NCBI GenBank assembly: GCA_024137785.1
Contig: JAHRHZ010000282.1
Span: 62,001 to 126,000, forward strand
Reading direction: 5' to 3'
DNA length: 64,000 nucleotides
DNA from: Ginglymostoma cirratum
Taxonomy: Eukaryota
The notes beneath the pieces were generated by a model that saw only the letters and a program-made list of their open reading frames with translations, was not told the origin of the DNA and made no database searches. Below, piece by piece: positions 1,286 through 45,830 of this stretch (positions within the stretch are counted from its first letter, which is position 1; the number at the start of each line of letters is the position of its first letter). A program made the position numbers and the translations under genes.

Positions 1286-1589
1286 GTCTTTGTCGTGGAG
1301 ATTCTGTCTCACAAACAGCGGCTGCAATTGCAGTGAATGAGGCTGACGATGTCCTGTTGTCCTGTAATTACAATACAACAAACAGCAACCCTTCCCTGTT
1401 CTGGTACCGTCAACATTCCAGGGGGTCCATGCATTTTCTACTGTATAAAAACCGATATAGTGAGAAACAAGCGAGTTTTCTAAATGACCGGCTTTCCTTG
1501 GATTTTGATCATGTGAAACGCACTATCCAGGTGAGAGTGTTAAAAGCAGAACTATCAGACTCCGCAGTGTATTTCTGCGCACTGAACCC
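1286..1589 (+). CDS. Intact TCR alpha/delta V exon (TRAV/TRDV-type, V1)
   Basis: Acceptor ttacag|GT is in frame with the leader; LCRGDSVSQ..LSCNY..LFWYRQ..DSAVYFCALN retains both Cys and the Trp, with no stops; followed by a 23-RSS. Confidence 0.95.
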
Positions 1590-1628
1590 CACAGACACTC
1601 AGAACTGAGCTGACCCTGTACAAAAACT
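1590..1628 (+). other. 23-bp-spacer recombination signal sequence of V1
   Basis: CACAGAC (1590-1596) + 23 nt + ACAAAAACT (1620-1628). Confidence 0.93.
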
Positions 1629-6936: not shown

Positions 6937-7379
6937 ATTGAACAACGGGATTCACACTTCATCTCACTGTGTCTGCTTTGCACAGTAGTACATTCCGCCG
7001 TTCCCGATCACGGTGCCATCTATTGAGATGATGTTGGACTTCTTCGATCTGTCAAAAGCAGCGTGTATTGGCCTATTGACTTATTGCCCTGGCATATGGA
7101 GCCAATATATGTGGCAGCAACTGTCTGTGATTGTCTGTACCAGGCCACCATGTCGAAAGTACCAAGGGAGAGCTGACAGTCCAGTTCAACCCGGTCACCA
7201 TCTCTAGACGTTACCTGATCTATCTGTGTGCTTTAATTCCCCCACTGGACAGCTGTAATGAAAGAAACGTCACTCAAACTCCAGGAGATATTACAGGATT
7301 GGTAAAACAAGACGTCTGGTTAGAAAAATAAACTCACAAAACATCAAGCACATCAGAGTTCCAACTTGAAAAAGGTCAT
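6933..7379 (-). pseudogene. TCR V pseudogene (Va): leader 7379-7338, V exon 7252-6972, 23-RSS 6971-6933
   Basis: Frameshifted leader MTFFKL..LMCLMF|gtgagt; V exon VQWGN*STQIDQVTSRDGDRVELDCQLSLGTFDMVAWYRQSQTVAATYIGSI..(frameshift)..AAFDRSKKSNIISIDGTVIGNGGMYYCAKQ; CACAGTG + 23 nt + TCAATATGT. Confidence 0.87.
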
Positions 7380-14735: not shown

Positions 14736-15598
14736 ATTTTGGAACTTAGTTTTTACTTTATTGCTACCACTGCAGCTCTCTTAACTGGTAAGTTGAAAAG
14801 ATATTTATCACTGTCAGTCGCAAACATCGCATTTATTACATTTGACACAGAATTATCCATATCTTGATCTGAAAAGAAAAGATTTGGATCCTTCCTGAAT
14901 TTGTCCATAAAACAAATGGCATGCATCAGCTGTAACGTTTTGCTGAATGGTTCATGGACCGAGCCCAGCACATTGAATTTAATGTTTTATTTGATATAGA
15001 CCAGCCGTATTCACGGAACAACATTCCCTCACATCACACTAATCCCCTTAGGGAATAGAGCACCATAGGAAACACTGAAAGTACGTTAAATCAAATAAAA
15101 TTACATGTCAAAGAGCATTTTAACCTTAATATGTTTCTGTATAATTTTCTAATTTAGTTCAAAATTAAGTGTCACGATTGTTGAATTGATTCGGACAGAG
15201 AAAACCACAGTGAAATATCAAGATTTAAATTAATATCTCTTTGGGCTTTTGCAGGGCAATGTCGCAGAGACTGTTTCACAGACACTGGCTGAAACCTCAG
15301 TAATTGGAGGAGATGATGTTCAATTATTCTGTAATTACACAGTTTCAAAGAACAATTTGCCTTACCTGTTCTGGTACCATCAATATTCAAGTGGATTCAT
15401 AGAGTTTTTGGCTCGTCAGAACAGCTTTAGAAGGAAAGCAGAAGAATTTGCATCAAATCGTTTTTCAGTGAAACTCAATGAATCCAGCCAAACTGTGCCG
15501 CTTAACGTTACTAAATCACAGCTGACAGACTCCGCCGTGTATTACTGTGCACTGAGCCCCACAGAGACACAGGATTGGAGTGAACCTGTACAAAAGCT
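14736..15598 (+). pseudogene. TCR alpha/delta V (V2) with defective leader; V domain and 23-RSS intact
   Basis: Leader homologue 14736-14787 starts aaacATT (V1 has aaacATG); canonical acceptor 15254/15255 is out of phase (2-nt loss versus V1); ETVSQ..FCNY..LFWYHQ..DSAVYYCALS is open; CACAGAG (15560-15566) + 23 nt + ACAAAAGCT (15590-15598). Confidence 0.88.
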
Positions 15599-21381: not shown

Positions 21382-21709
21382 GCTGTTTGTACATACGGAC
21401 TGTGCCTGTGGTATTCCAACACGCAGTGATGCCGTAGAGTCAGGACATGAGATCCATCAATACTTAAAGGAACCGTTTCATTGTCTTGGTCCAAGTAAAC
21501 CGGTCAGAGAAATCTGGAGATATCTTTCCCCTGACTCGAGCCATATCTCTTTAGTAAATATCTTGGAGTTTTGCGACAAGAGTGAATGCACCAAAAGAGA
21601 ATTTCGGCAGCATATTTTGTAATGTAATTACAGTTTAGTGTTACAGCCATTCCTTCCTCAATCATTAATACTGCCAGCTCTTGGGAGACTAAATGTCGCC
21701 GATTCGTTC
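21382..21709 (-). pseudogene. TCR V pseudogene (Vd)
   Basis: Acceptor ttaaag|; TNRRHLVSQELAVLMIEEGMAVTLNCNYITKYAAEILFWCIHSCRKTPRYLLKRYGSSQG..(frameshifts)..SPDFSDRF..LDQDNETVPLSIDG..HCVLEY; CACAGGC (21410-21404) + 13 nt + ACAAACAGC (21390-21382). Confidence 0.85.
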
Positions 21710-23268: not shown

Positions 23269-23501
23269 AGTTTTTGTATGAGGTTTGAGGCATTCTAATT
23301 CACTGTGGGTCTCAGAGAGCAGTAATACACAGAGCTGTCTGTCATCTTCAAAACTTTCACAGCCAATTGAAAAATGCCTTGTACGAGATTGAGATTCCCA
23401 CTCAAATGCTGAAAGCTCGGAACCGTTTTGTTATACCCATAATGACTGACTCTGAGCAGATAATGATCGGCTTGAGATGGATACTGACAGTACCAGAACA
23501 A
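23269..23501 (-). pseudogene. 5'-truncated TCR V pseudogene (V3) with near-consensus 23-RSS
   Basis: LFWYCQYPSQADHYLLRV..LKMTDSSVYYCSLR; in-frame TAG just upstream and no recognisable FR1 or first Cys; CACAGTG (23307-23301) + 23 nt + ACAAAAACT (23277-23269). Confidence 0.88.
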
Positions 23502-24369
23502 GCCATGCTATCCGTGTATCCAAAGACATTAGTGGGATGCTATAGACTGCGCAGTAAATTGACCTCAATGGAGCTTGGTGGAGAAGGGGGAGTGGGGGCT
23601 GGACCGTGTGGTGGGGTGAGAGGAAATGTTGGGAACGTCGATTTCTGCTGAAACTTCATTCATTTTAAAATTTCTTTTCCTACGTTCTTTTTATTGGAAA
23701 TGATGGAGACAAGTTCATGATCAATATGTGGAGATGGGTGGGGCATTGTGCTGGACCTTGGGGAGGCACGATACTTGCGGCTTTGTGCAGACAAATCGTG
23801 CAGGGTGGACGAGTAGATTTCTGTGTTTGCCATGGGGCTGGGGTTGTGTCACGGGTTACTTCGTAATGTTTATGCGATACATCATAGCATGTAAAACAGG
23901 GAGCACTTTTTTCATAGAATAACTGGATCTGCAGGACAAACATAACAGAGCTTTAAATAGTCATGAAGAAAATAAAGACGGATAAAAAAGTCATCATAAA
24001 GGCTGTCCTACTTGGAAACTTAAAACTTTAATTTGAGAGAAATGGTACTGGTGAAAATTAACTGTTCAGTTGCCATCGGCTTCAAGATTAATGTAGTTTT
24101 CGAATTTTGATTAGAGCTGAACATTAAGATCAGACAGCACCCATGGAAAGTTCTCCACTCGAATCTGCAAAGCTTTTTCTCATCACGGATACTTTGCTGT
24201 TTGCTTATTGTATCTTGTGTATTACATTCTCGTGGGAGCTGATGATAATTTCTACTCGTTTGGCCAGGAACAAGTTCGAGAACATTATCATTATTATGAA
24301 CCATTATGTTATCAGAAAGTCTATAATTCAGCGAATAAAGACAGTTATCCCAGTTGTTGCATATCCTGT

Positions 24370-32885: not shown

Positions 32886-33096
32886 TGATTTTGTGCAACT
32901 CTCTCTCCGCTTTGTGTCTGTATTCCTCACCAAGTTCAGGCTATTGTACAGCTCTCACCGTGTTCTGTATCATTGTGCTGTAATCTTCCCAAGTTCAGGA
33001 TTTTGTATAGCTTTCCCCAGCTCTGTATCTCTGCCACAGTATTGGCCACCATGTTAATATTTTTGGAGAGCTCTCTCCGTGCTATGTATCTCTGTG
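32886..33096 (-). repeat. Tandem array of four RSS-like units (period about 53-60 nt) 3' of the supporting V
   Basis: Unit 33096-33058 CACAGAG-23-CCAAAAATA; unit 33035-32998 degenerate heptamer-22-ACAAAATCC; unit 32977-32939 CACAATG-23-ACAATAGCC; fourth nonamer-like ACAAAATCA at 32894-32886. Confidence 0.75.
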
Positions 33097-33404
33097 TGCT
33101 GAGCGCGGACTCCTTGCACAGTAATAAACAGCAGAATAATTCAGTTGTATTCGAGAGATCATTAACCGACTGGTTGTCGCCTCAGGATCAATAGAAGCAG
33201 AAATTCGTCCTCCAGCGGCATTTTCTTTCCTCTGCTCTCCTGAATTGTCTCTTTGAAGGAGGTATTTCAGAGCTTGTTCTGGGGACTGACAGTACCAGTA
33301 AACTCTGTACTGACAGAATCCTGAATAGTCTCAGCTTAAAGTAACGGTGTCACCTGCAGCAGAAGTTTGTCGAGGCGGCCTCTGGGACACCAGGGAATTA
33401 GAAT
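33097..33404 (-). pseudogene. NAR-TCR supporting Vdelta exon (leaderless, CDR1 Cys), inactivated
   Basis: Acceptor cccacag|AT; (D)SNSLVSQRPPRQTSAAGDTVTLS*DYSGFCQYRVYWYCQSPEQALKYLLQRDNSGEQRKENAAGGRISASIDPEATTSRLMISRIQLNYSAVYYCARSPRSA; first Cys codon is TGA (33333-33331); phase matches the upstream J donor. Confidence 0.9.
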
Positions 33405-36215
33405 CTGTGGGATGATATTCAACATCATTACTTATCCAACGTCTGTTACAGTGAGAAATTGTAAATCACCGAAATTATTCTGCTTTTGTGGAAAATCATT
33501 TTATTGACAGTCCATTTGAATCTATTCTCTTTTATCGAAATACGAATGAAGGAGGTGATAGTTTCTTTGATATATTTTGTTCTTATAATGTGCAAAATAT
33601 TGCCAAAACTCGTGGTCGACACTGATTCAACAGCGACTTTCAAATGGTTGATCGATAGCAGTGGAATCAGGCAGAAAAGTTAGAGCTTTTCTGGGGAGAA
33701 CGCAAGGACCGGGGGAACAATTGTAAAGAACTCTGGAGAAAACTGTAACCACACGAGTGGCTCAATGCTATCGTGTAAGTTCTGTGATGTATGCTATATC
33801 TCGGCGTCCATTTATTCTATTGATAGACAAGCCCGAGGCAACATCTTACACTAACCTTCAAATCTGGAGGGCATATTTTTAAATTGAAAGTTGTAAGATT
33901 TAAAATGTTCCTGTGGAACAACGTTTTCACACAGGTTGCATATAGGAATGAGCTGCCAGAGGAAGTGTTACAGATAGGTGCAGCTAAAAAAAAAAAGACA
34001 AGTAGACAAGTACATGAAGAGGAAATGTTTGGAGGGATTTGGACCAAACACAGGGAAATGGGATTACTTTAGTTTGGGAAACCTGGCCCACCTGGACCAT
34101 TTGGATGAAAGGGTGTGTTACGTGCTGTATGAGTCGATCACTTCATGATCAATTTCCATAAATAACTGTGCAAAAATAACCCAACTGTGTTGTGCCAATA
34201 TGCACAGCAAGAACCAAAATAAACGGTGTTTTTGACTAGCGCCGATTAGCTCAATATTTGTTTTGCAGTTTCCTTCTGTACAGGAGATTCTACCTGATTT
34301 TTGATCTACATTATATTTTATTTCCAAGTAAGATCACTTTCCTCCCCGTTTACTCCCAATGAGAAATATTTTGAATCAGTATCATTTCATTTCTGCTTTT
34401 CCTTTGTGCTTTTTTCTTTTCTTGCAATCGTGGTAATTTGCACCAACATCGCTCAGACATCTCTTGCTTTCAGTCTGAACTGTTTCTTGGTGGAGGTGGG
34501 GTAGGTTTGCTATTACTGATGGGATCTCCCCTCCGGATCTCCCTCAGTTTCAATTCCTTGAATCGATTTATTCTCTTCTGGGTACTCTGGCTGGAGAGTT
34601 TTGTATTTTCGTTTTGCATTGAATATTTACATTTGCATTGAATATTTATAAGTATTAGGTCATTCAGCTCCGGTGGTATGCCCGCTTCAGTCTGAAATTT
34701 AATTTACACTGTCCATCCAGTACACTACGTAGGTATATTTTCAAAACCTTCAAGACTGAATACAAAGTGCTCCAATCACTTTTGTTGCAACTTTCACATT
34801 GCACCATCTCATTTTGTGTTTTTCTCCACCTTCATGACTTGATTTGTTCTGTTGTTGAGCATGCTACATTTATGGTACATTACTCTTGGCTCCGTCTCGT
34901 TCCTATTTGCTATGTCACGATATATAAGATTTCCATGAAGTCTTGTGGTACTTCTTTCGTCATCAGAGAACGAGACTAGGCGAAAACAGTTAGGTTTTGA
35001 CACTCCGCTATTTTCTGACATACAGAATGCCACAGATTCAAGTCAATGGCTTGACTCAGTTATTCATGCATTCGCAGTTCTAATTGCTGATGTCTTAATT
35101 TCAAACTATGACCACTGTGTAGACTTTTTAACATGGATTTAATTCCACTTAATAGCTATTCCTTAACAATTGCATATGTTTAAATTAGATCACTTATCCC
35201 TCTTTGAAACTGTAAGCAAGTCAGCTCAGACGTCACAATCGCTTCACCAAGGAGAGCAACGTTATCTCAAGCGCTTGCATGATGAATAGTAGCTGCACTT
35301 GCTGCAAAACAAACCGATTTGTCCTCAAGTAAGGAGAGCAAACTTTTTCCCACCATTCCACTCCTTCCCTCCGTAGAGCTCACGAAATAAGCTGGTGAGA
35401 GGTTGTACTTTGATCGATGGCCCAGAAATTGTCATATATTCCTTTTGATGCTTTTTTACTTGCTTGTTTTAAATGAGAATTCTTTCAGTTTTCATTGGAT
35501 CGCTTCAACAGCTAAATTGCAGTTAACCGATGTCGCAAAACATCTAAATTTAAAAATAAACATACTTACAGTTTCACATCCAAGTCTGACTATGGAAAAT
35601 TAGGAATGTCATTATATTTATGAAAGCATACATATGAAAACAGTTGAAAAAATGGCCAATCGATCATTCGTCTCACTGATTCCCCAATGAGTAAAGTTCA
35701 TCTTCAGACTCAGCCGGATCTCTTATACCTATGTTTTCTTAGTGATGCATCCAAGTTTCTTGTGAGGCAAATGTTTTTGTCACCTTTTCTCGTCCGGCAC
35801 CTGATTCGGAGTTCAATCTCTGCCTGGTACAGAGCTCCACGATGCCACTGCTCTGACCGAAGTGATAGACTGAGCTACTTTGATTAACAGTTAAGTCCGA
35901 GAGTGTAGTCCAGATTGTTGTCACTGTCCACACATTGAAACGAGAATTCATCAATGGTAATGGGACCGCACTGTTGACCTATTAGAGTAGTAATGCTACA
36001 TGTGCAGTGAAACAGTCGACTCGTGGCTAGGTTTCATAGACTTATGCCTGCAAGCTTTGACTGGACTCCCGTATTCTGCAGACAATACGAACACTACAAT
36101 GTGAATGATTTCTCCGAAATTGTTTGTTTGAATTTTGTTGCAAATAAAGGGCACAAAAATAAATTGAACATTCACCCACCCAGTATATAGAAAGGCGCAG
36201 TGCATAGTCACTTAC

Positions 36216-36301
36216 CAGCTATGACATTCAGCACCGACCCGGATCCATCTACATAACGATATTATCACAGTAATTCTCTCAGAATCCCCTCGACAAAAAC
36301 C
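36216..36301 (-). other. NAR-TCR J segment (36265-36216) with its RSS (36266-36301)
   Basis: YRYVDGSGSVLNVIA+G|gtaagt (NAR-type J with D in place of F/W before GxG); on + strand CACAGTA (36266-36272) + 20 nt + ACAAAAACC (36293-36301). Confidence 0.88.
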
Positions 36302-36616
36302 AATGCTACCTTAAATAGACGAGAAATCATCATCACGCGGTTTGAATAGTAAATTTATTCTGGAGATTTAGATAAATAATTAATATCCTACGTTTCCAAG
36401 TTTCCCTTGATTCGATCTCCTCTCCTGACCTTATGGCAAACTGTGCAGCAATACGGGAGGCAGATGTCCACTTCACACAAATGGAGGAGAATCTGAAAAA
36501 AACCCAATATTTATTGCTGGAGAGAGAAAATAAATTAACCCACAATACAACAAAGGGTACTTCGCGCCTGCAATTGGCTATCGGGGCTGGAGAATTTATA
36601 TTTTATTTATACAGAG

Positions 36617-36677
36617 TAATTTCGTCGGCCCCCTTTCACTGTGTATTTCCCCAATATTACACGTTGTTACAAACCCG
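36617..36677 (-). other. Candidate NAR-TCR D segment (about 36649-36644) with two 12-type RSSs
   Basis: J-facing CACAGTG (36643-36637) + 11 nt + ACGAAATTA; V-facing, read on +, CCCAATA (36650-36656) + 12 nt + ACAAACCCG (36669-36677); lies between the NAR V and J. Confidence 0.6.
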
Positions 36678-37010
36678 TGTAAATCTTCCTCGGACTGAGT
36701 CAGATGTGTGGACGTTCCTGAAACAGCTGGACTGTCGTTCTGGATTCCAGTTGTTCGAAAAAGATCACAGCTCGTGTGTGCGTCCTTTAACTGTGGTGAG
36801 TCTTTCCTAATTTGCATTGATCTTCACTAATACTGGGAAAGACATCGCCAGGGGAACACACTTGGAACGTATGAAACTCAAGATGCTGTTGACAATTATC
36901 GAATCGCATTGTAAATTGGATTGTAGGGCAGAACTGCAAGGTACAACTATGGGAATCTCCAGGCAGATTATCTCGGTTTTCGATTTGTTTCTGTGATGAT
37001 CTCCAGTGAG

Positions 37011-37525
37011 AGATTTTGAGCGACGATTAGTCAAGTCGCATCGCTGTGTACGTAGTACTGAGCCTTGCAGTAATATGTGGCAGTGTCTTCAATTCTGATA
37101 TCCCGAATTTCCAAAGAAAATGTCTTTTATGCTTTATTCATGGACACAACAAATCTTCCACCGCCCGAGATCCGCTCCCATTCCGTCGCTTCCCGTGTTT
37201 GTCTGAAGAAACTTCCACTCTTAAAATAATGATAAAATTTACGGCTATTAAAAACACAGTTGATGCTGACAGACTGGCACTCCTTCCTGGTCACCACTAC
37301 CGGGCTCTGTGTCACTGACTGACCGAAATATCCTGGAAGTGAAACAGAGAGAGGTTCGTGGGACTTAGAAGAGACCCTCACAACGATGTTAAAACCCCAT
37401 GCTGTGACTGTGATTTGGACGTGCGCAGCCAGTAATGTAATTTTACTTCTGTACAATGTCGGTTTGTGAAATCGGTACTTACTCGGTAAACATAGACACA
37501 GGATCTACACAAGGAGTGTATCCAT
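37011..37525 (-). pseudogene. NAR-TCR V (IgNAR-like V domain): leader 37525-37483, V exon 37332-37049, RSS 37048-37011
   Basis: Leader MDTLLV*ILCLCLP|gtaagt; YFGQSVTQSPVVVTRKECQSVSINCVFNSRKFYHYFKSGSFFRQTREATEWERISGGGRFVVSMNKA*KTFSLEIRDIRIEDTATYYCKAQYYV; IgNAR-like short FR2/CDR2, extra FR1 Cys; CACAGCG + 22 nt + TCAAAATCT; two stops. Confidence 0.92.
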
Positions 37526-45501: not shown

Positions 45502-45830
45502 GACTTTGTCTTGCAGATTCTGTCTCACAAACACCGGCCATAATCGCAGTGAATGAAGGTGAAGATCGCCTGTCATTCTGTAATTACGCAGCGACAACAA
45601 GCAGTGATCCTTACCTGTTCTGGTACCGTCAGCATTCCAGCGGCTCCATGGAGTATCTCCTAAAGAGAAATCAATATATCAGGAACTCAGAGGGAATTCC
45701 AGCACGCCGGTTTTCCTCGGAGTTTGATCATGTGAACCGCACTATTCACCTGAAAGTATCGAAAACAGAACTGATAGACTCCACAGTGCGCCCCACAGAC
45801 TCTGAACTGGCTTGACCCCGTAGCAAAACT
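45502..45830 (+). pseudogene. TCR V pseudogene (V5), paralogue of V1
   Basis: LCLADSVSQTPAIIAVNEGED..FCNY..LFWYRQHSSGSMEYLL..DFDHV-like EFDHVNRTI..ELIDSTVR; the YFC motif is deleted (15 nt versus V1); CACAGAC (45794-45800) + 21 nt + AGCAAAACT; no leader found. Confidence 0.9.

Follow-up and report, generated by a model that had tools for sequence, protein, structure and literature searches.

The analysed window (64,000 nucleotides; positions 62001-126000 of contig C282 of the Ginglymostoma cirratum assembly) carries on its minus strand a germline NAR-TCR cassette, in which a leader, an IgNAR-like V, a D, a J, an intron, a leaderless supporting V-delta, and a 23-RSS follow one another in this order. 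This copy is a real, correctly named, and ordinary cassette of a known family, and it is broken here; given its three in-frame stops and the loss of length in its J signal, it is very probably a pseudogene that arose by duplication and decay. NAR-TCR, the doubly rearranging TCR-delta of cartilaginous fish, is said to go back to Criscitiello et al. 2006.

Structure of the cassette

The identified parts are as follows (window numbering).

37483..37525, minus strand: leader exon of the NAR V (MDTLLV*ILCLCLP), with an in-frame TAG at 37507-37505 (codon 7) and the donor GTAAGT
37049..37332, minus strand: IgNAR-like NAR-TCR V exon, with an A-B loop Cys (ECQS), FFRQ replacing WYRK, and a TAA at 37129-37127 in FR3
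37011..37048, minus strand: NAR V RSS (CACAGCG, 22-nt spacer, TCAAAATCT)
36617..36686, minus strand: single D of 16 nt (36659-36644) plus its flanking RSSs, of which the 5' 12-RSS is decayed and the 3' RSS recognisable
within 36617..36686, minus strand: D 3' RSS (CACAGTG, 11-nt spacer, ACGAAATTA)
36266..36301, minus strand: NAR J RSS (GGTTTTTGT, 20-nt spacer, TACTGTG), with the spacer 3 nt short
36216..36265, minus strand: NAR J (*YRYVDGSGSVLNVIA; YVDGSGSVLNVIA), with the phase-1 donor GTAAGT and an in-frame TAA at the trimmable 5' edge
33405..36215, minus strand: J-to-supporting-V intron (2,811 nt), without a convincing private leader
33097..33404, minus strand: leaderless supporting V-delta exon, with a CDR1 Cys (SGFCQY), a TGA at 33333-33331 at the B-strand Cys position, and an acceptor in phase with the J donor
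33058..33096, minus strand: first 23-RSS of the supporting V (CACAGAG, 23-nt spacer, CCAAAAATA), with 4 mismatches to the consensus
32886..33096, minus strand: tandem row of four RSS-like units in steps of about 61 nt, with heptamers at 33096, 33035, 32977, and about 32924

The positions, part order, phases, 2.8-kb intron, and 23-RSS proposed in a first-pass annotation were borne out on the minus strand, and the junction that it predicted between the J and the supporting V is correct, a phase-1 donor facing a matching acceptor. The same annotation had called the cassette 'complete', a description that does not hold for a copy with three in-frame stops, a TAA at the J edge, and a 20-nt J spacer. 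That the cassette is hidden from the ORF track, as had been pointed out, is due in part to the in-frame stops.

Both V exons score as Pfam V-set domains (E = 3.7e-9 and 1.2e-10), and identical parts in identical order were found in all eight paralogous cassettes; the arrangement is therefore not a product of chance. The spacer of the NAR V RSS is 22 nt long in all nine NAR Vs of the genome, and the nonamer of the NAR J RSS is perfect. The supporting V shows a D-to-Y change in the DSAVYYC motif. Five ATG..GT candidates for a private leader of the exon beginning at 33404 are present in the intron; none is signal-peptide-like or convincing, and the donor of the nearest one is missing from paralogues L010 and L011. 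A strict RSS scan (3 mismatches or fewer) did not pick up the RSSs of the V, D, and J of the cassette or the first one of its supporting V. A possible second D near 36500-36440, inspected by eye, had no convincing RSS pair and was dropped.

Family assignment

In the accessible text of PMC1845163, NAR-TCR is characterised by a leader and a NAR V with an A-B loop Cys and no WYRK Trp, followed by a leaderless supporting V with a CDR1 Cys. The window V carries ECQS and has FFRQ without the Trp of WYRK, and the A-B loop Cys is present in 50 of the 52 aligned NAR V relatives. Together with the leaderless supporting V and its CDR1 Cys, these features uphold the family call of the first-pass annotation, as does the tree (25 rows, with 10 of the 52 database proteins, one per genus). 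There, the window V falls into the starred clade (95/95) with its paralogues and the models from zebra shark and epaulette shark, clustering with NAR-TCR-type Vs and separate from L128 and L129, the IgNAR Vs of the genome. Another V, L130, was considered as IgNAR-like, but it looks like a decayed NAR-TCR-type V, and the tree statistic of its group was set aside. Of the two results that the first-pass annotation named as refuting its call (grouping of the V with non-rearranging IgSF domains or with IgNAR clusters that have constant exons, or a functional private leader for the 33404 exon), neither was obtained. Judged from anatomy and descent, the cassette is a germline NAR-TCR cassette.

IgNAR clusters are laid out as V-D-D-D-J-C1..C5. 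The window cassette shares with them a V domain of the same lineage but has one D, no constant exons found nearby, and a J that splices in phase to a V-delta. The best single-domain PDB matches of the first V are shark VNARs (7spo_C, E = 7.6e-18), which would also suit an orphan IgNAR V-D-J cluster adjoining a V-delta by chance. We regard the probability of such an orphan as negligible, given the separation of the V from L128 and L129 in the tree, the presence of a supporting V downstream of all nine such Vs, and the lack of any constant-domain match to three C queries in C282:1-839,800 (less 23,630 bases of that range).

The overall plan agrees with NAR-TCR as presented in the accessible parts of PMC1845163, PMC5931798, PMC6795676, and PMC12227049, namely a leader with an IgNAR-like V, its own D and J, a leaderless supporting V-delta, a 23-RSS, and multiple cassettes. 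The window copy differs in its three in-frame stops, 20-nt J spacer, and decayed D 5' RSS. According to the available portion of PMC12227049, NARTCR V segments have already been mapped in cartilaginous fish genomes, and table S1 of that paper, which gives their coordinates, may already include the window copy. TCR-mu of marsupials and monotremes likewise has three extracellular domains, an extra N-terminal V, a supporting V, and tandem clusters, but is described in the accessible text of PMC3457774 as convergent, with VH-related domains and its own constant gene.

Probably inactivating lesions

The in-frame stops lie in the leader (TAG), the NAR V (TAA), and the supporting V (TGA). The leader stop is absent from all eight paralogues. 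At the site of the TAA, the 52 aligned database relatives mostly have E (33), Q (7), or K (5), and at the site of the TGA, 41 of 51 relatives have Cys. This B-strand Cys position is occupied by W or Y in the other 10, and judged by these relatives, loss of the Cys alone is not fatal for the supporting V, the decisive lesion being only the stop.

RAG is not known to tolerate spacers that depart from 12 or 23 nt by more than about one base. The spacer of the J RSS is 20 nt long in the window copy versus 23 nt in all eight paralogues. The D RSSs were scored with a matrix built from the 73 J 12-RSSs of the genome, against a background of 1,931 CAC sites in the window. The 3' RSS scores 9.9, above the 99th percentile of the background (2.4), whereas the 5' RSS, at -14.1, falls in the range from the background median (-20.5) to the 90th percentile (-7.6); of the 'D with two RSSs' reported earlier, the 3' signal thus stands and the 5' signal is at background level. 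Among the five intact paralogues, the D 5' RSS scores 11.6-12.3 in three, 7.7 in one, and -4.9 in L011, so that a low score is not unique to broken copies. The homologous D carries good 12-RSSs in L014, L016, and L017. Among the features of a functional gene, the cassette therefore lacks open frames in the leader, NAR V, and supporting V as well as 12/23-compatible RSSs for V-D-J joining (J spacer and D 5' RSS).

Zebra shark model P0002, the closest relative at 87 and 83% identity, is a predicted model rather than a transcript; it is open throughout, the three stop sites included, and shares the J-to-V junction. Runs X1 and X2, which together represent one sample, span all 30 bins with very deep coverage and contain 9 differences from the assembly, three of them near-fixed and some near half, which shows that other haplotypes are present in these reads. 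None of the differences falls on the stop codons; no indel is listed for this sample, and no alternative letter occurs at any of the three stops. The stops are common to the assembly and one further sample and, since the data comprise contigs and a single sample, are not thereby fixed in the species; an intact allele may exist in other animals.

It is very unlikely that the cassette is functional, with stops that were introduced in error by the assembly or belong to a null allele found only in the animal that was sequenced. Such a reading would fit the splice sites, phases, and order, which are all intact, the open zebra shark counterpart, and the short protein branch of the window V (see below), but it requires three separate substitutions and a 3-nt deletion all to be errors, and X1/X2 differ from the assembly elsewhere, yet revert no lesion. 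Recoding of the stops, by A-to-I editing to Trp or by selenocysteine at the TGA, is less credible still, to the point of being hardly conceivable. The TGA does occupy a Cys position at which 8 of 51 relatives have Trp, and A-to-G changes could turn all three stops into TGG; nevertheless, four edits in three exons would be needed, the other two sites are L/F and E/Q/K in relatives rather than W, and the 20-nt J spacer would be left unexplained. Under the pseudogene reading, translation would end at codon 7 and V-D-J joining would likely be impaired. Probably no protein is made from the window copy, and efficient recombination at its D and J signals would no longer take place. Because the cassette is broken, the J-to-supporting-V junction proposed earlier is unlikely to occur in a productive transcript.

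Paralogous cassettes and segmental duplication

In total, nine NAR V copies were identified in the genome by DNA search (eight on C282 and one on C115), and a protein search returned the same nine copies plus three distant matches. A supporting V lies downstream on the same strand in all nine, and the D and J located between the NAR V and the supporting V in the window are homologous to those of all eight paralogues. Five cassettes look intact, being open in the leader, V, J, and supporting V with a 23-nt J spacer (L011, L014, L015, L016, and L017). One is doubtful (L012, which has open frames but is missing the Cys and 7 residues), and three are broken (L010, L013, and the window copy). With five of the nine cassettes fully open, the function is carried elsewhere, and the broken copy is useful for counting the working repertoire.

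According to the scheme set out in the accessible text of PMC5931798, PMC6795676, and PMC3457774, two joinings are followed by splicing to C-delta, which gives a delta chain that has an additional V, probably an unpaired one. In the intact sister copies, RAG would join NAR V, D, and J inside the cassette through 22/12 and 12/23 signals and would separately join the 23-RSS of the supporting V to the 12-RSSs of D-delta or J-delta; splicing would then link the NAR-VDJ to V-delta-DJ-C-delta, producing a three-domain delta chain.

The window is part of a block with a second copy about 233 kb away; the two align over 119 kb at 90.6% identity. The twin cassette in the duplicated block, L010, is broken by lesions different from those of the window copy. 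Between the two, dN/dS is 1.11 at a dS of 0.093, compared with 0.48-0.57 in three other pairs tested; as immune V genes can show high dN/dS without being dead, this value is weak evidence alone. In the tree, the protein branch of the window V is short (0.058 versus 0.20 for L010), and given this short branch, selection may have continued to act on the window V over much of the period after the duplication. The nine cassettes show gain and loss by block duplication. A correct map of them is helpful, as the names given to such cassettes in automated gene models are uninformative or wrong.

Tandem RSS row behind the supporting V

In the row of RSS-like units behind the supporting V of the window, units 1 and 3 have retained CAC together with a spacer of 23 nt, and unit 2 lacks CAC. 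Elsewhere in the genome, such rows comprise 2-6 units with a period of about 61 nt, in which good and dead units often alternate. Rows were scored, in V segments having a first RSS, as the number of positions in the initial 60 nt that are identical in a later unit. By this measure, 8 of 9 supporting Vs (10 examined) reach 36-52 of 60, the exception being L010 at 26, whereas none of the 9 NAR Vs (at most 25 of 60) and none of the 30 ordinary Vs (at most 27 of 60; 37 examined, of which 7 lacked a first RSS) has a row. TRF at a score of 40 did not detect the row. The published NAR-TCR accounts do not mention it in the accessible parts of PMC1845163, PMC5931798, PMC6795676, and PMC12227049. A literature search found no description of stacked RSSs in sharks; the primary papers lay outside that search, and absence from print is not implied.

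The row is a candidate for a selected RAG-loading or two-step joining device behind supporting Vs, a tentative proposal that we consider rather improbable. With such a device, a cassette that has rearranged its NAR V-D-J would be more likely to have its supporting V joined to D-delta/J-delta as well; if a downstream unit were cut, the first RSS would still be available for another try. If true, it would help to explain the coupling of two rearrangements in one T cell; the row is the only part of the cassette that could change the understanding of the system, and only if the extra units are cut in thymocytes. A productive, longer CDR3 running through the row was also considered and rejected, as a stop codon closes the reading frame of the V ahead of the next unit with CAC in all nine cassettes.

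The row also bears on whether the window copy might be dead for coding and still active in recombination, either through RAG cutting of the 23-RSS row as a deleting or decoy element or through donation of NAR V sequence to intact copies. Units 1 and 3 and the compatible 12-RSSs on the D-delta and J segments are consistent with such activity. However, the row of the window is more worn than most intact ones, with its unit 2 devoid of CAC, its first RSS has 4 mismatches compared with 0-2 in the five intact cassettes, and no joint was seen in the reads mapped to the stretch. Recombination activity of this copy is accordingly unlikely, and a pseudogene formed by duplication and decay is the reading that we prefer.

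Locus context and transcription

RNA run X14 (about 24% read) contributed 5 reads to the stretch, all intronic, and run X15 (about 57% read) contributed none; for both runs, the tissue is unstated and there is no T-cell control, so that these counts speak neither for nor against expression of the cassette.

The cassette is surrounded by ordinary TCR Vs. Contig C115 carries D-delta, seven J-delta, C-delta, J-alpha, and C-alpha; the 12-RSSs there are compatible with the supporting V and its 23-RSS. No overlap was found between the end of C115 and the examined part of C282, and the contigs were not joined; the window cassette is probably on the same chromosome as C-delta. A genome-wide C1-set search, in which 150 of 248 candidates were scored, did not list C-delta, which was found with a C-region protein query.

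Recombination signals in the NAR-TCR cassettes

The supporting V-delta of the window cassette is followed by a tandem row of RSS-like units, and such rows also occur among the eight paralogous cassettes of the same genome (L010-L017).

32886-33096 (-), tandem row of RSS-like units behind the supporting V

Each row behind a supporting V comprises 2-6 units at a spacing of about 61 nt. Self-identity of at least 32/60 was observed in eight of the nine supporting Vs with the first RSS and in none of the NAR Vs (0/9) or ordinary Vs (0/30). CAC is absent from unit 2 but present in unit 3 in four of the five intact cassettes. In two deep sequencing runs of one sample (X1 and X2), a minority letter at window position 37019 accounts for 17-19% and brings the V RSS nonamer of the window cassette one base closer to the consensus; this letter may represent an allele or a paralogue.

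Genomic organization

The window contains other TCR-type V segments, among which both orientations are represented.

1303-1590 (+), open, with 23-RSS
15273-15560 (+), open, with 23-RSS
6973-7257 (-), broken or partial
21528-21689 (-), broken or partial
23307-23594 (-), broken or partial
45519-45788 (+), broken or partial

On the window's contig (C282), the regions at about 1-168 kb and 237-396 kb are copies of one block that was duplicated long ago. They lie 226-246 kb apart and can be aligned over 119 kb at 90.6% identity, and the duplication doubled three NAR-TCR cassettes. Decayed remnants of NAR V or supporting V segments are located elsewhere.

C282, 458-464 kb, 641 kb, 690 kb, and 725 kb
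C116, 70 kb and 432 kb

The contig bearing C-delta (C115) carries a delta/alpha array, in which the naming of segments as delta or alpha rests on their arrangement.

C115, 2.61-2.72 Mb (+), D-delta, 7 J-delta, C-delta, dozens of J-alpha, and C-alpha

One D-delta, with 12/23 signals, was found there. Four inverted V segments lie just upstream of the array, and at a distance of 1.4 Mb in the upstream direction the other strand bears one intact NAR-TCR cassette.

B-strand cysteine of supporting Vs in other sharks

Trp or Tyr occupies the usual B-strand Cys site in the supporting Vs of ten database gene models (P0023, P0024, P0032, P0039, P0044, P0045, P0037, P0042, P0017, and P0040), i.e. Trp in six Scyliorhinus and two Hemiscyllium models and Tyr in two Heterodontus models. 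The CDR1 Cys is retained in all of them. The B-strand Trp is shared by all six catshark models, where it may characterize the lineage and go with an altered disulfide.
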